Shown: positions 19,076 to 38,813 of the stretch, in pieces
Layout of the letters: each line of letters opens with the position of its first letter
Numbering within the stretch: the stretch's first letter is position 1
Position numbers and translations under genes: made by a program
The notes under the pieces: generated by a model
Databases searched by the model: none
What the model was told of the DNA's origin: nothing
The model's input: only the letters and a program-made list of their open reading frames with translations
DNA from: Bacteroidota bacterium
Lineage (GTDB): Bacteria; Bacteroidota; Bacteroidia; AKYH767-A; 2013-40CM-41-45
Reading direction: 5' to 3'
Assembly: GCA_016720655.1 (NCBI GenBank)
Contig: JADKKE010000032.1
Location: forward strand, 182,383 to 246,382
DNA length: 64,000 nucleotides

Positions 19076-20081
19076 TTGAAAAACAAATTCGAAAATATCG
19101 AAGACCTGATAGCTAAATTCCTTGCAGGAGAAGCTAGTTCTGAGGAAATCCATATCCTTGAGGAGTGGAAGAATCTGCATGCCGATAATCTTCGGGAGTT
19201 TAATCAAATGAAGATGTTATTTACAGAAAGCGCGACATTGAAGCCCTTGCTTTCTGTGAATAGCGACAAAGCCTGGCTTGCAATTCAGCAAGCAATTCAA
19301 CTTGAGAAAGGAAGAGTGGTTCAGCTTCACAAACGAAGCAATTTGCAAACGGCACTAAGAATCGCAGCGATTTTCATTTTTATGGCAATGATTGGTGCGG
19401 TGATATATTTTATGACGAGTCCACTTGCCGGATCGGAACATGAAATTGCAACGGGTGATAGTATACAAAAAAAGTATGTTGCCGGATGGCAGCGAAATTA
19501 CATTTAATAAACACAGTTCAATTCAATATGCTTCAAATGCATATTCAAAAAAACGTGTTGTGAAATTAAAAGGCGAGGCTTTTTTTGACGTGAAACACAA
19601 TGAAACGGTTCCATTTATTGTTGAAGCAGGCGCACTTCAGATTCAGGATATCGGAACAGCTTTCAATGTGAAAGCACAGCAAAATTCCGGAATCATATTT
19701 GTTTCGGTTGTGTCCGGTGAGGTAAAAATAATAACTGCGGAAGATAAATCAATTCTACTTTCTGCCGGAGAAGCAGCATCCTATAATAGCGCAACCATGG
19801 AATTGAAAAAATCCGAAGAGATTGATAGAAACGCCTCTGCTTACAAGGATAAGATATTTATTTTTGAAAATGCAGAGTTAATCCACGTACTGAAAACCCT
19901 GAATGATATTTATTACTCAGACCTTCGAATAGGAGATGATAAAATTAGTTCATGTCGGATAACTGTTTCATTCAACAATGAGAAAATTGAAGATATCGCA
20001 GATGTCATTGCACTGACTTTAGGTCTCTCACTTCAAAAAAGTAATGGAACTATAACTTTTCATGGAGATGCATGCAAGTAA
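19076..20081 (+). pseudogene. FecR-family anti-sigma factor, split by a 1-nt frameshift in an A7 run
   Basis: ORFs 19076-19507 (N-terminal cytoplasmic part plus TM) and 19425-20081 (FecR domain LPDGSEITFNKHSSIQY...LKGEAFFDV...IGTAFNV). Adding one A at 19467-19473 gives ...GDSIQKKSMLPDGSEITF. Confidence 0.75.
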
Positions 20082-21883
20082 ATGTTCTTTGTATTTTCTG
20101 ATTCTTGCCCTGTTTTTGTTTTCCAATGAAATAAAAGCACAGATTCCTTTTCTGGAAAAGAAAATATCTGTGCAGGTCAGGAATTTACCTGTAGACGAAC
20201 TGTTGAAAATTATCTCTCAAAAAGGAGAGTTTACATTTTCTTATAGCACTCAATTAATACCGGAGTCAAAAACAGTTTCTGTACAAGTTCAAAATAAAAG
20301 TGTGCGTGAAATATTGGACCTTGTTTTTGAAGGAAAAGTGGCTTACAAGGAGAGAGGTAAACACATCATTCTACAAAAAGCTGAACTCTCAGCTCTTGGT
20401 AAGGAGCCTGAATACATCATTGTAAGCGGATATGTAAAGGATGCAACAAACGGCACCGAGGTTTCTCAGGTTAGTATTTTTGATAAACTCAGCAGGGTTT
20501 CAGCACTGAGTGATCAGTACGGATTTTTTACACTTAAAATAAAAATAAAGGATAAGTTCAGAGATGTGACCTTGTTTGTAAACAAAGAAAATTATCAGGA
20601 TACAATTGTGTATATTAATCAGAGCGGGCACTCTGTTCTTAATATAACAATGTATCCGGACGAGAAGATTGTGACCTACGTGGATTCATCTGCTATCCGG
20701 GATAGTATTTTTACAGTTAATCGACTGGCACTGGTGAACATGATATTAAGTGAGCAGGAGCAGGCCAATACGCGAAATATCAAAGATACATTGTATCGGA
20801 AGTTCCAGGTTTCATTCCTTCCCTATCTTGGTTCTAACCTGAAGTTGAGCGGAAATACTGTGAATGATTATTCATTGAATATTTTAGCGGGTTATTCAAT
20901 GGGAACAAAAAAACTGGAAATCGGAGGGCTGCTTAATCTTGATCGTGATTCAGTAAAGGTTGCGCAGATCGCCGGACTGATAAATATCACCGGAGGTCCT
21001 GTGCAAGGCGCTCAGGTTGCCGGTTTGATAAATTACAATCTGCGGCCTGTAAAATGTGTGCAGGTAGCCGGATTGGTCAATACGAATATGGATTCGGCCC
21101 GGGCGGTTTCCATAGCAGGATTACTCAATGTAAATCTCTCTCCCGCCAAAGGATTTCAAGTCGCAGGTCTTATGAATTTTAATCTGAAAACATCAAAAGT
21201 TGCGCAAGTAGCAGGCTTGATAAATGTCACCGCAAAGGGAATTCAGGGAGTACAGATTGCGGGTTTGATGAATGTTTGTCTGGATACGATTAAAGGCGGA
21301 CAAGTGGCCGGATTGTTAAACATTTCCAAAACAGTGATCGGATCCCAAGTTGGCTTTCTGAATATTTCAGATACATGTTCGGGAATTCCTGTCGGCTTTC
21401 TAAGTTTTGTCCGAAAAGGTCTGCATCAGTTGGAGATTTCTTCCAATGAGGTTTATCCACTCAACGTTTCTTTCCGTACCGGTGTACGACAATTCTACAA
21501 CATTTTCGAAGCGGGAATGCAATTCAAAACTCCGGAAGACCATACCTGGTATTTGGGTTATGGTGTGGGTACTGCCTTGTCGCTTAGTAATAATTGGCAA
21601 CTGGATTTTGATTTCACAATGAATCAACCGATCCGGGGCAATCGTTTCAATGAGTTTAATTCGTTAACAAAAATTAACATTGCAGCAGAGGAAAAAAATT
21701 GGGAAAGGATTTTCTATCGCTGCTGGACCAACATTAAATATATTATACGCAAATACTTCTGATCCTGACTACGAAGGCTATCTGAATCGTATTTCACCCG
21801 GAAGCTTTTCAAGTTCAAGTATTTCCGGGGATTACAAGCGAAGCATTTGGTTAGGTGCTAAAATAGGTTTGAGATTTTTCTAA
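20062..21883 (+). pseudogene. STN-domain outer-membrane protein with a CarboxypepD_reg-like domain, about 9 tandem approximately 20-aa AGL(I/M)N repeats and a C-terminal beta-barrel-type ending. It is split by a 1-nt indel in an A7 run
   Basis: Signal peptide, STN motif (ISVQVRNLPVDELLKIISQKGEFTFSY) and repeats VAQIAGLINITGGPVQGAQVAGLINYNL... The C-terminal piece (21680-21883) ends ...KIGLRFF. One fewer A at 21692-21698 gives ...AAEEKIGKGFSIAAGP. Confidence 0.5.
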
Positions 21884-25254: not shown

Positions 25255-26460
25255 CTATATTTTTACATTAAGGTGTTCAGATGCATTGTAACGGACCATA
25301 TCGTAAACAATTTTTACCCAAATCATTACGCATGGCAAAGCTTTTAGAGCATAGGGTTTCACATAAGTGACTCGTATGAATTTAGGGAAGAGATCGGTTG
25401 CTGAAAGCGAGGTCAGGATGAAAGCAAAAAGGAATAGGGCAAGATTGGTCCTTGAAAATGGAGAAGCAAAATACCAGATACAAATTCCAATCATTGCCAC
25501 AATAAAAGTTGGAGATTCGGCTTTGTGATTAAAAATAATAATCCAAATCAACACCGATGCGAGAGCAAAAATCCGAAACGTGAGTTCACGATAGTTTTTT
25601 CGAAACAAAAATGGCACAAGAAACAGTAAACATCCAGGTATTAGAACAAGGTTTTTATTGATATCAAGGTTGAACCAGGTATTGATAATGCCCACAACGG
25701 ATAAACTATAAGCGCTTTGATAATCGTTAGCTAACATATTCCCCCAGCTCTGATAGAGAAAAACCAGCTGTTGGAAACTAATGATCAGCAGTGGCAGACA
25801 GAAAAACACCATCATCCACAAGAATGAATAAAACACAGCTTTCATTTTATTCGGATAAAACAGGAATAACGCAATTCCTACGATTCCAAAAATTTTAATA
25901 TATACAGAAGCTATTATGCAAAAAGTTGCCAACAGCAGTTTGTCTTTTTCCATGAATGCAAAACTCAGAATCAGCAGTCCGGCCATCAGCGCGTTAGACT
26001 GAGAATTTTGCATCGATGTCATCAATTCAAAAATGCAAATCAATAGTGTGAGTCCTTTTTGTTTTAGATTTAGTTTTGGAAGAGAATAAACTGCAATACA
26101 CAGGATTAATGCATTGAGCAAATTCCACAAGGCTAACCCTATTGCATCCGGGAAGAATGCAAAAAAGCCCATAGCGAAAGAAAATGTAGGGCTGTATTTA
26201 TACAGGTCCCAATGTTCTTCCGGGTAGGATTTATAGATATCTTTATTAGAAGAAAGATGTTCAAATGAGTTTTTAAAAATGATGTAATTATTATAATGGG
26301 TGTACGTTTTTTGAACCTCAGGATAATACTCGCTCTTTTTGAGAATTGATTGTACTCCGGCACCGATTGCAAAGAATGAAAGGAGGAGTCCGACTAAAAA
26401 TGGTTTTGAAATGAATTTCTCGACTAAAAGATTCCAGCTGTTGGCAAAAGTGGCAGACAT
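25255..26460 (-). CDS. Polytopic membrane protein, DUF2029/GT87-like (putative lipid-linked glycosyltransferase)
   Basis: About 11 predicted TM helices over 401 aa. The fold assignment is by general similarity only. Confidence 0.35.
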   Translation of the reverse strand: MSATFANSWNLLVEKFISKPFLVGLLLSFFAIGAGVQSILKKSEYYPEVQKTYTHYNNYIIFKNSFEHLSSNKDIYKSYPEEHWDLYKYSPTFSFAMGFFAFFPDAIGLALWNLLNALILCIAVYSLPKLNLKQKGLTLLICIFELMTSMQNSQSNALMAGLLILSFAFMEKDKLLLATFCIIASVYIKIFGIVGIALFLFYPNKMKAVFYSFLWMMVFFCLPLLIISFQQLVFLYQSWGNMLANDYQSAYSLSVVGIINTWFNLDINKNLVLIPGCLLFLVPFLFRKNYRELTFRIFALASVLIWIIIFNHKAESPTFIVAMIGICIWYFASPFSRTNLALFLFAFILTSLSATDLFPKFIRVTYVKPYALKALPCVMIWVKIVYDMVRYNASEHLNVKI

Positions 26461-26627: not shown

Positions 26628-29600
26628 TTATTCTCGAATTAAAGTCAATCTTCCGGTTTCGATTGCATCACCACAAATAATTTTGAAGAGATATACACCA
26701 TCTGCATTTTCTTTTGCGTCCCATTTCACCAGATAAGTTTTGTCTTTTTCCATGGTTCCATCAAACAAGACTGCAACTTTCCTTCCATCCAGAGAGTAGA
26801 TTTCAATTCTGCCATTCTCAGAATCAAAATTATTTCGGAATTCAATTGTTGTGGTACTACTGAGTGGATTCGGGTAAGCAGTGACTACAAGTGCAGGCAA
26901 TGTTACTTTGTAAGTCTCACGAATGATTGTCCCTTCAGCATCTGTGATTTCAACTTCATATACACCTGGTGATGTTACATCAACCTCAGACGAAGTTTGT
27001 GAAGGGTCATTATTCCAAACGAAGGAATATGGAGCAATTCCTCCATCCACTTCTGCTGTGAGTGTCCGATCCTTTGGATTCAGTATCATCCTGCAATTTG
27101 ATCTGCATCTTGTTACTTGAACACAAGAAGTACTTGATCCGCATCCATTCGTGACTGTAACTGAATAGGAACCAGAGCAATTGACACTAATGCATCTATT
27201 GTGTGAACCATTACTCCATGTATATGAATAATTCGTACCGAGAGGAGCACACAGGGTGGTGGACTGACCAGAATTGTAACAGCGATTACCGGTGATAGTA
27301 CTTGAAGGACGTGAACCAGCTGCGATACAAATTGAAGAAGTGCTGCTGCATCCGCTACTGTTGGTTACAGTAACCGAGTAAGTTCCCGGACCATTGATAT
27401 TCAGGCAACGATTATGTGTTCCATTATTCCAGGTATAGGAATAACCTGTCCCACCGGCAACACATAAGGTTGAGCTTTGACCTGCACAAAGTGAAGCGGG
27501 CCCGGTAATGGTGCTGTTCGGTCTTGGATTGACAATAATCACTTTACTGCAAGTGCTTGAACAACCCGCTGAATTTGTCACGGTAACAGAATACGTTCCT
27601 CCGGTATTCACAGTAAGACAACGACCATGTGTACCATTGTTCCAGGTATAAGAGTAACCTGATCCGGCAGGAGCACACAAAGTAGCTGATTGTCCCTGGC
27701 AAATGGAATTGTTACTTCCGCATCCCGTTACAGATATGTTGCAAGATGGTCCAGCGCTTACATAAATTGTTTTGCTACATGTACTGCTACATCCACCAGC
27801 ATTCGTTACTGTAACACTGTATGTGCCGGCGGAAGTCACGGAAATACATTGTGTGCGCAATCCATTGCTCCACAGATAAGAATAGCCTTGTCCTGATGGT
27901 GCACACAACTGAACCGTTTGTCCCTGACAAATAGTGTTGTTGCTGCCACAACCGGTGGTGGTGATGTTGCAGGAAGGAATGGAACTTACATAAATGGTTT
28001 TGGTACATGTACTGCTGCAGCCACTGCTATTCGTTACTGTCAGCGTGTATGTTCCTGCTGCAGTAACACTGATGCACTGACTGTGCAGTCCGTTGCTCCA
28101 TGAATATGAATATCCATTTCCTGAAGGTCCGCACAACTGTACTGATCTGCCTTGACAAATAGTATTGTTGCTGCCACATCCCGTTGCTGTAATTGTGCAT
28201 GAAGGTGCCTGGCCAACTGAAATTGTTTTACTGCAAGTACTGCTACATCCGGTACCATTTGAAACTGTTACAGTGTAAGTTCCGGCCGTTGTTACGTTAA
28301 TGCATTGAGTATGCAATCCATTGCTCCAGTTATAAGTGTAACCGGAACCGGCAGGTGCACATAACTGAGCAGTTTGTCCCTGACAAATTGAATTATTATT
28401 CCCACAACCAGTAGCAGAAATTGTACAGGAAGGTACTGTCTTGCTACTAACTATTACATCAACCAAACTATCGCAATGCAGTGCAGTTGAATAGTTGTGT
28501 GAATAGGTTCCACCGGATGTGACCACTTGTCCCCATGGAAGAGTATAAGATCCACCCTGACAGAAAGAAGCAGTGCTTGATGTATGATAAGCAGCATTCA
28601 CGGTTATATTAATTGTAACGAGGCTATCACATCCTGCTTGCGAAGAATACGTGTGAGGATACGGGCCTGCACTTGTTGCTGTTCCGCCCCAAGGTAAAGA
28701 GTACGAACCACCCTGACAGATCGCATGTGATTCGGAAGTCGAATACGTTTGGTTTACGGTGATATTAATCGTTACCAAACTATCACATCCTGCCTGCGAA
28801 GAATATGTGTGTGGATACGGACCTGCACTTGTTGCTGTTCCGCCCCATGGCAATGGATACGAACCACCGTCACAAATCGCATGCGTTTCAGAAGTAGAAT
28901 ACGTTTGATTTACGGTGATATTAATCGTTACCAAACTATCACATCCTGCCTGCGAAGAATATGTGTGTGGATACGGACCTGCACTTGTTGCTGTTCCGCC
29001 CCAAGGTAAAGAGTACGAACCACCCTGACAGATCGCATGTGATTCGGAAGTCGAATACGTTTGGTTTACGGTGATATTAATCGTTACCAAACTATCACAT
29101 CCTGCCTGCGAAGAATACGTGTGAGGATACGGACCTGCACTTGTTGCTGTTCCTCCCCATGGCAATGGATACGAACCACCGTCACAAATCGCATGAGTTT
29201 CAGAAGTTCCACCGTCACAGATCGCATGTGTTTCTTAAGTTGAATATGTTTCCTTCACATCGTTATTGATCGCTTCCACACTATCACATCCTGCCTGTGT
29301 ACAGTTCGTGTGAGGATATGGACCGGCACTTGTTGCTGTTCCACCCCAAGGCAATGGATACGATCCACCGTCACAAATCGCATGTGTTTCAGAAGTAGAA
29401 TACGTTTGATTTACGGTGATATTAATCGTTACCAAACTATCACATCCTGCCTGCGAAGAATACGTGTGAGGATATGGACCTGCACTTGTTGCTGTTCCAC
29501 CCCAAGGCAATGGATACGATCCACCGTCACAAATTGCATGCGTTTCAGAAGTTGAATATGTTTGATTTACATCAATATTGATTGTTACCAAACTATCACA

Positions 29601-32600
29601 TCCTGCCTGCGAAGAATATGTGTGAGGATATGGACCTGCACTTGTTGCTGTTCCACCCCAAGGCAATGGATACGAACCACCGTCACAGATCGCATGCGTT
29701 TCTGAAGTTGAATATGTTTGATTTACATCAATATTGATTGTTACCAAACTATCACATCCTGCCTGCGAAGAATATGTGTGTGGATACGGACCTGCACTTG
29801 TTGCTGTTCCGCCCCAAGGCAATGGATACGATCCACCGTCACAAATCGCATGCGTTTCAGAAGTTGAATACGTTTGATTTACATCAATATTGATTGTTAC
29901 CAAACTATCACATCCTGCCTGCGAAGAATACGTGTGGGATATGGACCTGCACTTGTTGCTGTTCCACCCCATGGCAATAGATACGAACCACCCTGACAGA
30001 TCGCATGCGTTTCTGAAGTTGAATACGTTTGATTTACGGTGATATTAATCGTTACCAAACTATCACATCCTGCCTGCGAAGAATACTGTGAGGATATGGA
30101 CCGGCACTTGTTGCTGTTCCACCCCATGGCAATGGATACGAACCACCGTCACAGATCGCATGCGTTTCTGAAGTTGAATATGTTTGATTTACGGTGATAT
30201 TAATCGTTACCAAACTATCACATCCTGCCTGCGAAGAATACGTGTGAGGATACGGACCTGCACTTGTTGCTGTTCCGCCCCAAGGCAATGGATACGATCC
30301 ACCCTGACAGATCGCATGCGTTTCTGAAGTTGAATACGTTTGATTTACGGTGATATTAATCGTTACAAGACTATCACATCCTGCCTGCGAAGAATATGTG
30401 TGAGGATATGGACCGGCACTAGTTGCTGTTCCACCCCAAGGCAATGGATACGAACCACCGTCACAGATCGCATGCGTTTCTGAAGTTGAATATGTTTGAT
30501 TTATGGTGATATTAATCGTTACCAAACTATCACATCCTGCCTGCGAAGAATAAGTGTGAGGATATGGACCTGCACTAGTTGCTGTTCCTCCCCAAGGCAA
30601 TGGATACGATCCACCCTGACAGATCGCATCGTTTCTGAAGTTGAACACGTTGATTTACGGTGATATTAATCGTTAAGACTATCATCCTGCCTCGAATAAT
30701 GGCGGATGGACCGGCACTAGTTGCTGGTCCACCCAAGGCAATGGATACGAACCACCGTCACAGATCGCATGCGTTTCTGAAGTTGAATATGTTTGATTTA
30801 TGGTGATATTAATCGTTACCAAACTATCACATCCTGCCTGCGAAGAATACGTGTGAGGATACGGACCTGCACTTGTTGCTGTTCCTCCCCATGGCAATGG
30901 ATACGATCCACCGTCACAAATCGCATGTGTTTCAAGTAGAATACGTTTGATTTACGGTGATATTGATTGTTACCAAACTATCACATCCTGCCTACGAAGG
31001 ATACGTATGAGGGTATGGACCTGCACTGTGTGCTGTTCCACCCTAAGGCAATGGATACGATCCACCGTCACAAATCGCATGTGTTTCAGAAGTTGAATAT
31101 GTTTGATTTACATCAATATTGATTGTTACCAAACTATCACATCCTGCCTGCGAAGAATATGTGTGAGGATACGGACCGGCACTAGTTGCTGTTCCTCCCC
31201 ATGGCAATGGATACGATCCACCGTCACAAATCGCATGTGTTTCAGAAGTTGAATACGTTTGATTCACTACTAGTTCAGTTGTAATCGTACTGTCACAACC
31301 AGCTTGATTCGGAATATGAGTGACATACGTACCTGCTGTTGTCTGTGCTGTGCCCCCTGGTGGAGTATAACTTTGTCCAAGACAAATTGGAACAGTTGTA
31401 TTGCTGCTGCTGTTCGCGGTTGATAAAGTCACATAAGCGGTATCTCTTCCGATACAACCATTGAGAGGATTCGTTACTGTGAGAACATAGGTTCCGACAG
31501 CATTAACAGTTGGAGTCGCTGAATTTGGATTCAGGGAAATATTTCCATCTGTTGTCGTCCATGCAAATTGTGCATTTGCTGTGGTCGATGAACCATCCAG
31601 AGTTGTACTTCCGGCTACACAAAGGAATTGTTTATCCTGACCTGCATTTGCATTCACAACAGGTGGTTCAGAGATTGTAAAAATATTGCTCGCGGTACAA
31701 TTCCCGTTGTCTGTAACAGTCACTGTATAGGTTCCTGGTGCGAGACCCGATAGAGTTTGAGTATGATCTCCCGTATTCCAGTCATATGTGAATGGAGCAA
31801 CGCCATCTGAATGTGCAGTGATGGATCCATCGTGAGCGCCATTACAGGTAACATTGTTTACATCGGCGGTAACTGTTACAATTCTCACTGTAACCACCTG
31901 GTCAGCGGCACCGGCAAGAATACAGGCATCGCCACCAATGATCCGTCGGAAGAAAGTTTTTACATACAACTGGCCGATTGTGGCACCGGGAAGGTCTTGA
32001 GCATTGGCACCACTGATCGGATCCCAGTTTATACTGTCAGTACTAATCTGCCATTGATAGGTTGTAGCCGAAGGCAATGCAGGATAGGGAGAAGTAACAC
32101 CATGTCGAATAATCGTCGGCAGGACATACGCTGGAATGGAACCCGGTAAATCATCTGGGATAGTTCCCGCACAAATCGTCTGGTTACCCGTAATAGTATT
32201 TCCGAGCAGGTCAGGAGGATTTGCCCAAACAACTAAACCCGGTTCATATGGAGTAGTACTCACGCGAGTCGTATTGAGTGCACCTTGTGTAAGTGGAATG
32301 TTATTCGATTTGGAAGTAACAATTGTATAAATCCTGCAATTGTAAAATTTAATTCCTCTTTCTCCAACAGGATCATAATCATCACCGGCTCCACCATAAT
32401 ACGTACTGAACAAGAGTTCTGATAAGTCTGATTTTAATTTACAAAATATCTTATCATTGTTTCCAAGATTTGTTGTTTGCAATGGAACATTCGGGCTTGT
32501 TGTTACGGGAAAGTTGGTACTGTTGGTATATCCAAAAATATACACATCATTGTTCAAATCAGTATTCAATCCCATCATGTTCACTTCGTTTGCACTTCCT

Positions 32601-34516
32601 CCCAGATAGGTAGAAGAAACAAAGTTTTGATTGGTATCCATGCGACATACAAAAAAGTCATTTGTTCCGGTATTGTAACCGTTGTCATATGTACCGGAAG
32701 CTGAAATATTCGATGCTGCCAGTCCGCCTGTGATTCCACCAAAATACAATTGAGTTTTTAGTGTATTGAATTCCATGCATAGAATAGAAGTTGACTTACC
32801 ATTCGCTGATTGAAAGTAAGAAGACCACACAGTGGAACCTAAAGAATTCAATTTTTGAATAAAACCACTTTGCGTTCCGCCCAGTGTTGCTTGTCTTGGG
32901 GATGTGGTAGGGAAATTTGGTGAATCAGTGTAACCGGCCACGAAAATATCCTGGTTTGAAATATTTTGTAGCATGATTGTCGCCTGATCGGTACCGCTTC
33001 CGCCATAATTTTTCATCCATGAAATAGCGCTGAGATCCTGATTGATTTTGAACACAATCACATCAATTCCTGAATGACCATTACTTGCACCGGTAGATGG
33101 ATAGAGAGTAGAAAGATTTCCACTAGCAGTATTTCCACAAATTACTACATCTCCAGCTTCGTTGATACGTAAATCGAAGGAACCATCATCACCATCGCCA
33201 CCAATAATCGAACTCTTGATGGATTGACCATCCTGAGTGATTTTCATGATAAAAATGTTATCCGTGGCCTGATTGCTTTGATTAATGCTTGATCCGCTGA
33301 ATGCTGATCCGCCGATCAATGGAAAATTGGTGCTTGATGTGTATCCCGTGATGTAAAGATTTCCATCCGGTCCTTGTTCCATTGCATATGGGTTGTCATC
33401 CTGGTTTCCTCCAATATAAGTTTGCCATACGCGAACACCCGGATCACCAATAGTTCCCGGTTCTGTGTATTTCCCAACAATCATTTCAAGATTTCCGTTA
33501 GCGGATACATCAAATGCGCCTACGGTAATCTGATCTGTAGTACCTACAACACGAGCAACCATGTAGATTGCACCGTCATTTGGATCAACCCAGATACAGT
33601 GACCATGGTTGTCTCCACTTGAATTTGTGTTCACCCAGGTAGCCCAACGCAAGGCAATCGGATCGATGATCAGAGGTTGATTTTCATCGTATTCACCCAA
33701 TTGAAATTTTAGTGTATTGTGATTGGATACAACATATTTAGCTACAACTTCTTTTTGAGTTCCATTTATCTTTTGATAGACAACGGGTGAAGGGAAGTCC
33801 ACATCACCAACACTGGTATGCATAATCAAGTGTCCATTTTCCTGAACATCCATCTGTTCAATACCATCAAAACGAATTGCGATTTGTGAATTATCAAATC
33901 CTGGTTTACAAACAATGTCATACTCAAGAGTTCCTTCTGCAGAGGGATAATATCTGACATCTACATTCGGATAAACATTATTGTACCAGATTTCTCCGTA
34001 ACTGTTCACATGTGTGATCGACTGATTTCCTGAAAAGAAATTTGCAGGATCGGAGTGAACATCTTTACTGGTGATTGTCATTGATGTAGAATGATTCAAA
34101 AAATTCATCATCCAGCCATGCCCCTTCAACCCGGTTGTAAGTCTGCGATGAATGCCTGTTTCCTGCATTATTTTTTCGATCTCTATACCTTCAGCTTCCC
34201 GTGCAGCGATCGAAGCAGGATCGTATGTTGCGATCATCATTCCATCCTTTGTTGCCACTGCTTTACCGAGAGGAAAGTCTGCCTTATACAAAGTTGGCTC
34301 AGAAAATTGTCCTTTGTTCTCTGTAAAATAGATTTGCTTTCCATAGTATTTAAGCATGTCCTCGATGGCTTCGCTATGGCCATTTTGTTCCTGACTTCCG
34401 CTTTGTGCAGAAAGCTGGAGGCACTGGAGGACAAGTAAAGTGAATGATGCAAAAAATAGTTTGCAATGCATCTTTACATTCACAACTTTTTGATGAAATG
34501 TAGTTTGTGTTTTCAT
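26628..34516 (-). pseudogene. Giant (about 2600 aa if contiguous) T9SS-secreted cell-surface adhesin-like protein. Domains are signal peptide, SBBP beta-propeller repeats, SprB repeats, 18 copies of a 52-aa tandem repeat, 6 copies of a 75-aa Cys-bracketed Ig-like repeat, and a T9SS C-terminal sorting domain. The reading frame is broken in the repeat array
   Basis: N-terminus at 34516 (MKTQTTF...SFTLLVLQCLQLSAQ). C-terminus ...YPNPLSSTTTIEFRN...DGVYLFKIICGDAIETGRLTLIRE is a Por_Secre_tail. SprB repeat: VTCNGAHDGSITAHSDGVAPFTYDWNTGD...TVTVTDNGNC. The ORF fragments 31043-34516, 30682-30897, 30052-30648, 29897-30127, 29235-29972 and 26628-29165 all encode the same repeat. Confidence 0.7.
28440..31270 (-). 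repeat. Intragenic tandem array of about 18 copies of a 156-bp (52-aa) unit with near-identical DNA. The unit is PWGGTATSAGPYPHTYSSQAGCDSLVTINI(T/D)VNQTYSTSE(T/S)HAIC(D/Q)GGSY(P/S)L
   Basis: Period read directly from the sequence: gatattaatcgttaccaaactatcacatcctgcctgcgaagaata... recurs every 156 bp. The copies at 30600-31040 carry many small indels and substitutions. Confidence 0.85.
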
Positions 34517-36809: not shown

Positions 36810-38813
36810 TTAATTCCTGCTTAATTTCTTAAATGGATTACTAAAGTTTTTGTCAGAAATAAAAACCGAATCACTAAGTGTTTTCAAAAAAGCTATAATA
36901 CTTTGCTGTTCTTCTTTGGAAAGATTTGCTCCATGTTTATTTGCAAATTGCATCTTTGAATCCAAATTCACACAGTTCTTTACACCGGAACTATAGAACT
37001 CAAGAACTTCTTCGAGGGTCTTGAATCGACCATCATGCATGTAGGGTGCTGTGAACAATAGATTGCGTAGAGATGGAATTTTGAATTTTCCGATGTCTTC
37101 TTTTTTTTCTGAAATTCCTCCTCTTCCTTTGTCAGGATAAAACTGAACATCGACAACTGAGTCAAGTCCATTGTTGCTAAAAGTTAATGTTGTTCCTAAA
37201 GCATCTCCGTCAGTGGGATGACAATGCAGACAATCGCCTTTTGTTTGATCGTTCACCAAAACAAAACCTTTGATCTCATTTTCAGTAAAATGATCTTTCC
37301 CTGCAATGACCCTGTCATATTTAGATTGATTGGATAAAAGACTTCGTAGAAATTGTGAAAGAACATTTGAAACTTTTTCGCTGTCAATTTCTCCGGCACC
37401 AAAAATTTCCTGGAACAAAGATTTGTAATAGTTGTTTTCATTAAGTCGATTGCAAAGATCTTCGGGGTGCATATTCATCTCATCCGATGCTGTGATAGGG
37501 TGAAAGACCTGATTTTCGATTCCTGTAGCTTTTCCATCCCAGAAGAATGAAGGATACCAGGCAAGATTGAACAAGGGCAATGTATTTCGCGTCATGAATA
37601 CACTGTTTTTTCCTTTACTGAATTTATTCGGTGCATCACTGAAAGCATACTTCTGCTGATGACAAGATGAACAGGATAGGGTGCTGTCTGAGCTCAGGAT
37701 GGGATCATAAAAAAGTTGTCTGCCCAAATTAATTCCCTCATCCGTGATTGTGTAATGAATTGGCAAAGGCATTTCCGGAAAGAATTTCATTTCCGGAAAT
37801 GCATGCGGACTGAGACCGGATTTAGCTCCAAGGAAAAGGAGTGAAAGTACGATCAATTTCAACCCTGGTTTCGAGAGTTGTTTGATCCTTGTAGAATTCA
37901 TCGTTGAATCAGCAAAGGGAATAGTTTCAGACTGAATATTGGTCTTGACTTTCAGGTAGTACATTCCGTTGGCGAATTTGCCGGTGTCGAACCAGAATTT
38001 AGTAGGAACATTCGTCCATTTTTTTACCAACTCTCCGGTTGAATTGATAAGTTCCATGTCTTCAATGATGTGATAGGCAAGTACTTTTCTTGCTTCAACG
38101 TGCACAATCTCTCTTGCCGGATTCGGATATACGTTTAGATAATTTGCCTGGTCCTTTTCCTTGATCGTGTGAATTAAAGTAATACTCGACCACATGTTGT
38201 CAATGAGCCATCCTTCCTTTTCACTATTGACAGAATCGCTTAATAAACTGAACCGTGCCAGGACGGTGTCAGGAAAAGTACTCATCCACGACAAATCAAA
38301 ACACAGCCAGATGTTTTTCCAACTTGAATCCGTACCACTGAATCCGATTTCTCCGGAAGGAAGTGTGTCAACATTTGCGGTATCAAAACCATAGAAATTG
38401 TAAACGTAAGCATTGTTGAATGCATTCTGCCAACTTAGGCCGTGGTCAATAGAAAATTCAATTGTTCCAAGATCACCACTAGAATCAATATCCAGTTTTT
38501 GTAACCATTGAATCGCCAATATTCCCCACCAGAACTGATTTAAAACATTGAAAGTAAACCTGCTCGTATCATTCACAGGATAATAATTCAAAGTATCTGT
38601 TACAATAGCATTTGGTGCAGTCGCTGCACTGTCAAAGATTATTTTCTGTGGATGTCCGATTTGCCAAACATTTGATACGCTTGTATCGGTTTCGATGAGT
38701 ATTGAGTTCTGTATAGAAGTATCAGCTCCATCAAAATATTGTGTAAAAAATTGAGCAGTTGAAATTTGACACGAGAAAATAAACAAGATGATAAATGTGT
38801 ATAATTTAGCCAT
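36810..38813 (-). CDS. In-frame fusion or read-through. A roughly 300-aa N-terminal module with signal peptide and T9SS C-terminal sorting domain is joined to a di-heme cytochrome c peroxidase (CCP/MauG family) that has its own signal peptide and could start at 37901
   Basis: T9SS tail NYLNVYPNPAREIVHVE...ANGMYYLKVKTNIQSETIPF at aa 225-300. After 4 residues follows MNSTRIKQLSKPGLKLIVLSLLFLGAK (signal peptide), then CSSCH, CLHCH and PSLRNLLFTAPYMHDGRFKTLEEVLEFY. There is no stop codon between the modules. Confidence 0.65.
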   Translation of the reverse strand: MAKLYTFIILFIFSCQISTAQFFTQYFDGADTSIQNSILIETDTSVSNVWQIGHPQKIIFDSAATAPNAIVTDTLNYYPVNDTSRFTFNVLNQFWWGILAIQWLQKLDIDSSGDLGTIEFSIDHGLSWQNAFNNAYVYNFYGFDTANVDTLPSGEIGFSGTDSSWKNIWLCFDLSWMSTFPDTVLARFSLLSDSVNSEKEGWLIDNMWSSITLIHTIKEKDQANYLNVYPNPAREIVHVEARKVLAYHIIEDMELINSTGELVKKWTNVPTKFWFDTGKFANGMYYLKVKTNIQSETIPFADSTMNSTRIKQLSKPGLKLIVLSLLFLGAKSGLSPHAFPEMKFFPEMPLPIHYTITDEGINLGRQLFYDPILSSDSTLSCSSCHQQKYAFSDAPNKFSKGKNSVFMTRNTLPLFNLAWYPSFFWDGKATGIENQVFHPITASDEMNMHPEDLCNRLNENNYYKSLFQEIFGAGEIDSEKVSNVLSQFLRSLLSNQSKYDRVIAGKDHFTENEIKGFVLVNDQTKGDCLHCHPTDGDALGTTLTFSNNGLDSVVDVQFYPDKGRGGISEKKEDIGKFKIPSLRNLLFTAPYMHDGRFKTLEEVLEFYSSGVKNCVNLDSKMQFANKHGANLSKEEQQSIIAFLKTLSDSVFISDKNFSNPFKKLSRN

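Follow-up and report, generated by a model that had tools for sequence, protein, structure and literature searches.

The window analysed here is a stretch of 64,000 nucleotides from the Bacteroidota bacterium assembly GCA_016720655.1 (contig JADKKE010000032.1, positions 182,383 to 246,382 of the forward strand), part of a metagenome-assembled genome (MAG) of an uncultured Bacteroidota from wastewater or activated sludge. On its minus strand lies a gene for a large surface protein predicted to be exported by the type IX secretion system (T9SS), with a coding frame that is broken inside a tandem repeat array in the assembly but is very probably intact in the cell. As assembled, the gene consists of six minus-strand open reading frame (ORF) fragments (26628-29165, 29235-29972, 29897-30127, 30052-30648, 30682-30897 and 31043-34516), exactly the boundaries given in a preliminary description of the locus that was made from the letters of the window. 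In a three-frame translation, frame 0 is uninterrupted from 34516 to 31046 (1,157 amino acids, aa), frame 1 holds the pieces 30951-30685 and 30654-30055, frame 0 reappears for a short piece (30148-29900), and frame 2 holds 30044-29238 and 29234-26631, the latter encoding 868 aa. Five local repairs, made only in the array units designated U02, U04, U08, U09 and U13, are sufficient to join all of these pieces into one ORF of 2,635 aa.

The features of the gene are collected in Table 1. Matches to DUF7948, the SBBP repeat and the SprB repeat in Pfam and NCBIfam all fall within the 1,157-aa N-terminal ORF, and the sorting domain (Por_Secre_tail/TIGR04183) occupies the extreme C-terminus at aa 787-863 of the 868-aa frame, with an E-value of 4e-9 for PF18962 and a score of 47 bits for TIGR04183 against a cut-off of 23. 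Together with the single ORF obtained after repair, these matches bear out the preliminary description's reading of the fragments as the parts of one gene.

Table 1. Features of the T9SS surface protein gene and of the disrupted units within its repeat array, in window coordinates
Feature	Positions	Strand	Remarks
Whole gene, T9SS-secreted surface protein	26628..34516	-	Assembled length 7,889 nt; repaired product 2,635 aa (five local repairs)
N-terminal leader with hydrophobic core, putative Sec signal peptide	34403..34516	-	MKTQ...KLFFASFTLLVLQCLQLSAQS; identified by eye
DUF7948 (aa 64-287)	33656..34327	-	PF25778, E 1e-54, 186 bits
SBBP-type beta-propeller head (~aa 290-766)	32219..33649	-	PF06739, 44 bits; AlphaFold2 pLDDT (predicted local distance difference test) 87
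Single SprB repeat (aa 883-917)	31766..31870	-	PF13573
Tandem array, 19 units of 156 bp (52 aa), U00-U18	28407..31384	-	Consensus CDGGSYPLPWGGTATSAGPYPHTYSSQAGCDSLVTINI(T/D)VNQTYSTSETHAI
U02, noisy patch	30919..31072	-	Two stops, 2-bp deletion near 30933, ~8 private substitutions
U04, garbled patch, 141 bp	30622..30762	-	15 nt lost in ~10 separate small deletions; substitutions also present
U08	29999..30153	-	1-bp deletion near 30086
U09	29844..29998	-	1-bp deletion near 29936
U13, aberrant, 189 bp	29187..29375	-	~17 substitutions (mostly non-synonymous), in-frame TAA at 29237-29235
Six 76-aa Cys-rich PKD/Ig-like (immunoglobulin-like) repeats	27099..28433	-	Pfam PKD match weak, 24.5 bits
T9SS type A C-terminal sorting domain	26646..26876	-	PF18962; TIGR04183

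The tandem array is detected by Tandem Repeats Finder with a period of 156 bp and 17.0 copies (28596-31264, score 3065, 81% matches, 5% indels), along with additional higher-order periods of 312 and 466 bp. Dissecting the array in register yields 19 units, from U00 (starting at 31384) to U18 (ending at 28407). These comprise 17 close units and the two divergent terminal units, U00 and U18, with U17 also diverging in its last third. Intact close units are 85-98% identical to each other in pairwise comparisons and no two are identical, the pair U14 and U16 (98% identity) forming a recent-looking block. The 156-bp array reported in the preliminary description is thus real, although its 18 near-identical repeats become 17 close and two divergent ones, and near-identity overstates the nucleotide similarity of units whose synonymous sites differ by about 0.26. 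Among the 11 lesion-free units there are 25 variable codons, 20 of which vary in a purely synonymous manner, and the proportions of synonymous (pS) and non-synonymous (pN) differences are 0.26 and 0.023, respectively. Because pN/pS is 0.09 in the presence of roughly 26% synonymous divergence, the near-identity of the unit peptides is maintained by purifying selection and not simply by very recent expansion. Recent expansion or gene conversion, which had been proposed to explain the similarity of the units, therefore accounts for only some blocks such as U14/U16.

All of the frame breaks were traced to the five repaired units by three-frame translation and unit alignment, in agreement with the earlier observation that every ORF break falls within the array, and the 1,157 aa on the N-terminal side and the 868 aa on the C-terminal side are free of lesions. 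The two stops in U02 correspond to a change of TGG to TAG at 31045-31043 and of CAG to TAG at 30994-30992. In U04, the approximately ten deletions are packed into about 100 bp, while the adjoining units are clean. The single-base losses in U08 and U09 occur in a non-repetitive sequence context, and no homopolymer or short-repeat tract was found at the break points in the array. U13 owes part of its unusual length to a 33-bp ‘mini-unit’ (29219-29187) that consists of the first 14 and the last 19 nucleotides of a unit.

Each lesion was then compared with the corresponding unit in conspecific assemblies, with units matched by position from the 5' side of the array. The comparison set consists of JADKEM010000001.1 (L093; 1.93 Mb, 97-98% identical to the window), JADJUM010000026.1 (L001; 8,866 bp, 93-96% identical) and two contigs, L011 and L012, of JADJDN (GCA_016702675.1; MAG Aved_18-Q3-R54-62_MAXAC.153, order AKYH767-A, family 2013-40CM-41-45). 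The L001 contig is binned in a MAG of Candidatus Brachybacter algidus (Saprospiraceae), and the related locus otherwise occurs on large contigs of AKYH767-A MAGs; L001 is probably mis-binned.

None of the lesions in the window is shared with any of these four assembled sequences. At the U02 sites, all four carry TGG, CAG and the TC dinucleotide that is missing from the window. U04 corresponds to a normal unit in both L093 and L001, and L093 is intact at every one of the U04 deletions as well as at the single-base deletions in U08 and U09. The aberrant sequence of U13 was not found in L001, L011 or L012 and is absent from the protein encoded by L093 (P0134), where a normal unit precedes the U14-type unit and the C-terminal ORF continues uninterrupted for 1,080 aa, including 8.5 clean units. 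The conspecific assemblies do contain disruptions of their own. L093 has a single garbled patch in the next unit along (window positions 30637-30527), where about 20 micro-deletions interrupt sequence that is clean in the window, and each of its remaining 12 units is exactly 156 bp in length. L001, L011 and L012 likewise carry indel-laden units of their own, plus frameshifts outside the array.

Two further comparisons are available beyond this set. An Illumina-derived metagenome contig (L013) aligns to window positions 28832-24276 with 99.54% identity and 0 gaps, and terminates within the array; two short-read MAG contigs (L002 and L007) also terminate at the array. A more distant ortholog (L005, 68% identity) is an intact ORF of 1,725 aa with the same architecture and five units, four of them close.

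The lesions are private to the window, the conspecific assemblies are intact at the same positions, and errors occur elsewhere in the window. The best explanation is therefore consensus error in a repeat beyond the reach of short-read polishing, and the apparent frame breaks are most probably residual Nanopore R9.4.1 errors in the array of an intact gene. This agrees with the option of an assembly artefact within the repeats that had been raised in the preliminary description, and is reinforced by the different lesions that the conspecific assemblies have acquired. In the proposed mechanism, assembly of a metagenome from Nanopore R9.4.1 reads would leave consensus errors. Short reads from the array would have no unique placement, and effective polishing would fail there. 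Co-existing strains with other numbers or orders of units would probably add to the damage by causing long reads to be misaligned within the array.

The 198-aa and 222-aa fragments of the window correspond to the NCBI proteins IPQ03_14135 and IPQ03_14125, which are assigned to a ‘Bacteroidetes bacterium’ MAG and lie on a contig of 1,052,241 bp. JADJDN and JADJUM are both listed in the table of 1083 high-quality MAGs of Singleton et al. (2021; PMC8012365), who assembled Nanopore reads with CANU and polished the result in succession with Racon (--include-unpolished), with medaka (two rounds, r941 model) and, for a single round, with Racon on Illumina reads (PMC8012365). The improvement reported from R9.4.1 to R10.4 lay mostly in homopolymer calling. 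The locus resembles Nanopore R9.4.1 consensus indels in hybrid-polished MAGs in that its lesions are biased toward deletions and private to each assembly, homopolymer frameshifts occur elsewhere, and unique window sequence that can be checked against an Illumina contig is clean. It differs in that substitutions cause three of the breaks and abound in one unit, unlike classic homopolymer errors.

Several points weigh against consensus error as the origin of the breaks. The errors were deduced by comparing assemblies and not seen directly in reads. All three stop codons are substitutions and U13 is substitution-rich, not deletion-rich, both of which are less typical of Nanopore consensus error, and one real nonsense mutation would suffice to make the gene a pseudogene. 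The conspecific assemblies represent different strains (~98% identity) with a different order of units, and their intactness is no proof of intactness in the strain of the window. Assignment of the window's MAG (IPQ03) to the same Nanopore study is indirect, through its locus-tag and accession series and its 97-98% identity to L093; the MAG was not among the supplementary-table rows searched, and L093 (JADKEM) itself was not found in the MAG tables searched.

A second explanation, to which a substantial but less than even chance is given, is that the array is a chimera or collapse of co-existing strain variants, making the copy number of 19, the order of the units and the frame unreliable. In the JADJDN MAG, two contigs carry the array together with its flanks, with approximately 15 and 10 units. 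Unit variants also follow one another in a different order in the window (28407-31384) and in L093 (9161-11620); units 1 and 3 of L093, for instance, both match U11 of the window best. The garbled patches in these two assemblies lie at a similar depth, four to five units into the array, and the 33-bp mini-unit resembles a junction artefact. However, at 85-98% identity every unit can be told apart, which in principle puts them within the resolving power of long reads, and the ends of the array agree with L013 and with L093, the latter at 99-100%. A chimeric array would, moreover, refine the explanation by consensus error rather than exclude it. The differences in unit order and number fit either a mosaic assembly or rapid unequal recombination inside the array, as far as the assembled sequences can indicate.

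Genuine inactivation is unlikely. Under this explanation, the gene of this strain would be decaying after real nonsense and frameshift mutations, and loss of large surface proteins is common in bacteria. At least five units are disrupted, with three stops of the substitution type and the substitution-rich U13 among the lesions. Against this, the lesions are limited to five of the 19 units, the other units retain a pN/pS of 0.09, and the long N- and C-terminal parts have accumulated no lesion at all. Decay would also have to concentrate approximately ten micro-deletions in a single 156-bp unit, while L093 shows damage of the same kind in the following unit, which is intact in the window. No lesion is held in common with the conspecific assemblies, and homopolymer frameshifts occur in unrelated genes of the same assembly. 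A pseudogene would be characterized by lesions that recur within the lineage and by relaxed selection; no recurring lesion was found in the four conspecific assemblies, and the intact units of the window show no relaxation.

Least credible, and rejected here, is the phase-variable surface antigen suggested in the preliminary description, in which repeat slippage or recombination would reversibly shift the frame to switch expression ON or OFF: the protein is surface-exposed with a long tandem array whose assembled copy number varies among relatives, but the unit is exactly 52 codons, so that gain or loss of units is frame-neutral and cannot act as a switch; the breaks are at least five heterogeneous and unrelated point lesions and not one switch, with no simple-sequence tract at any of them; sister assemblies lack lesions at the same positions; and, judged by the unit length and the kinds of lesion, the locus lacks the reversible frame switch expected of such an antigen (a repeat unit whose length is not a multiple of three, a homopolymer tract or an invertible element).

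Variation in length is better supported than variation in phase. As counted in these error-prone assemblies, there are 17 close units in the window, 13 in L093, 12 in L001 and approximately 15 and 10 in the two JADJDN contigs, giving a conspecific range of 10-17, and the L005 ortholog has five. These counts uphold the suggestion that the gene is length-variable. The two array-bearing contigs of the single JADJDN MAG (L011 9817-12269 and L012 1276-2779) both include the flanking SprB region, as might be expected if strain variants were co-assembled or the end of a contig was duplicated.

Frame disruptions are not confined to the repeat gene. The preliminary statement that the coding frame is broken only inside the array holds within the gene itself; elsewhere in the window, other genes are also frameshifted relative to the conspecific assembly. 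A FecR anti-sigma gene (19076-20081, plus strand) is split over two frames near 19467-19471 at a run of seven T residues, where L093 has six and encodes an intact protein of 334 aa. A gene for an STN-domain protein, possibly a TonB-dependent receptor (20062-21880, plus strand), undergoes a frame change near 21690, close to its 3' end, when compared with the 604-aa version in L093; the coding sequence for the final 70 aa persists in a different frame of the window. Finally, a 667-aa ORF (36810-38813, minus strand) places a T9SS sorting domain in the middle of a protein (aa 228-295) that continues as a MauG-like di-haem peroxidase. The equivalent region of L093 consists of two genes, one of 304 aa with the tail at its C-terminus and one encoding a 363-aa peroxidase with its own signal peptide, and a T run at 37914 shows a 1-bp length difference between the assemblies. 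An indel error at this position has probably fused the two genes in the window. There are thus three further probable homopolymer frameshifts in the same window. More generally, when a hybrid-polished Nanopore MAG shows a frame that is broken only within repeats, the pattern should not be taken for phase variation or gene decay.

The genes neighbouring the repeat gene encode a glycosyltransferase of family GT87, a protein of 788 aa with a CarboxypepD_reg domain and pyruvate kinase, and a second protein within the 64-kb window also has a T9SS tail. The GT87 gene, which encodes a membrane glycosyltransferase (25255-26460, minus strand), is located 168 bp downstream of the repeat gene on the same strand. 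It was considered as a conserved partner and is present in the conspecific assemblies, but was dropped because it does not lie beside the L005 ortholog.

The gene is a member of the known class of large secreted surface proteins of Bacteroidota. From its predicted domains, the product would be exported by the T9SS and held at the cell surface, presenting a propeller head on a stalk of 19 small, putatively disulfide-containing Ig/PKD-like units and six 76-aa PKD-like domains. If it behaves like known T9SS cargo, the protein would be guided to export by its sorting domain, which would then be cleaved off and replaced by a lipopolysaccharide anchor, and the length of the stalk would set the reach of the head from the cell. 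The AlphaFold2 model of the head (aa 40-780, pLDDT 87) has as its best solved match the beta-propeller enzyme CylK (E 5e-21, template modelling (TM) score ~0.5, 17% identity), a likeness at the level of the fold only. More than 1,200 proteins share the head. Many of these are annotated as ‘partial’, probably reflecting contigs that are broken in downstream repeats, and a T9SS tail is also present in complete relatives with a length of about 1,143 aa and 40% identity.

The 52-aa unit gave no consistent match to any Pfam or NCBIfam model, including PKD (PF00801) and its relatives. Sporadic hits to Glyco_hyd_101C, DUF4761, ZT_dimer and EF-hand_10 in Pfam and to NuoB in NCBIfam were set aside as repeat-driven noise, given that no single stretch passes alone and that the hits vary between proteins. 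However, a profile of the unit aligns with the C-terminal two-thirds of the adjacent 76-aa PKD-like repeats (93.7% probability, E 1.8e-7), and on the basis of this profile-profile alignment the unit looks like a shortened Ig/PKD derivative. Compared with PKD and bacterial Ig-like repeats (PF00801, PF18911), it is approximately 24 residues short of a full domain. The structure prediction proposed for the repeat in the preliminary description was carried out on five units, and the resulting AlphaFold2 model is Ig-like with a pLDDT of 86.5. That description had regarded the novelty of the unit as dependent on its not matching a known adhesin domain; no Pfam or NCBIfam model matches it, its remote link is to the neighbouring PKD-like repeats, and its predicted fold is Ig-like.

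The closest solved structures to the five-unit model are neck and stem fragments of GhpA from Aureispira sp. CCB-QB1 (PDB 9flp and 9flw; bioRxiv 10.1101/2024.01.29.577165), with Foldseek E-values of 7e-10 and 6e-08. The better of the two matches, to 9flp_A, has a TM score of 0.40 and is a fold-level match only. GhpA is a T9SS cargo of similar layout: behind a signal peptide, its adhesin-like N-terminal head is followed by an extended stem built from small, disulfide-containing Ig-like domains in tandem, and the sorting domain lies at the C-terminus. No sequence homology to GhpA was detected when the PDB was searched with the protein, with the family profile or with a profile of a single unit; across all PDB sequence searches, which were made with the repeat segment, the protein ends and the family and unit profiles, only sorting domains and chance NuoB-like matches were returned. 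The ghpA gene cluster was also considered, and no PorP-like or PorE-like neighbours (ghpB, ghpC) are present at the locus. In view of the lack of sequence similarity and of these neighbours, a stem-like role is proposed and not identity with ghpA: judging from the structural model, the array probably works like a GhpA-type stem, and the gene is not called ghpA. SprB and other giant repeat-rich T9SS surface proteins offer a second comparison, as they share the SprB repeat, tandem Ig-like repeats and a T9SS sorting domain. SprB itself differs in having a type B (CHU_C-like) sorting domain and in moving along the cell surface for gliding, while the protein described here combines a type A domain with a propeller head, and a role in gliding is not implied.

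The unit belongs to a very large family of sequences, found in proteins of up to approximately 6,300 aa; a threshold of E <= 1e-3 gives 16,001 cluster representatives, of which 3,845 remain at E <= 1e-30. In a set of 64 proteins with the 52-aa unit, 14 have CHU_C tails and 12 have Por_Secre_tail tails. Within the unit, the residues G-C-D-S are invariant, and 97.7% of 342 units have A, I, L, V, M or T at the next position, with I, L, V or T accounting for about 97%. The resulting D-S-x fits the Bacteroidota O-glycosylation motif D(S/T)(A/I/L/V/M/T) (PMC8550257), raising the hypothesis, based on this motif, that each unit would carry one glycan. The residue following D-S begins a beta strand, however, and this could explain its conservation without a glycan.

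These features lead to a tentative proposal, for which the odds are somewhat short of even, that the ‘GCDS’ unit may be a distinct, very abundant and as yet uncurated stalk module of Bacteroidota T9SS proteins. Such a module would be a shortened Ig/PKD domain with one Cys pair and one glycan per unit, and its copy number would change rapidly among strains (10-17 here, and five in a related species) to tune the reach of the head. With no Pfam or NCBIfam model at present, the 52-aa unit family is worth curating. Given the motif in every unit and the glycosylated Ig-like stem of GhpA, arrays of this kind may form glycan-coated stalks on the cell surface.

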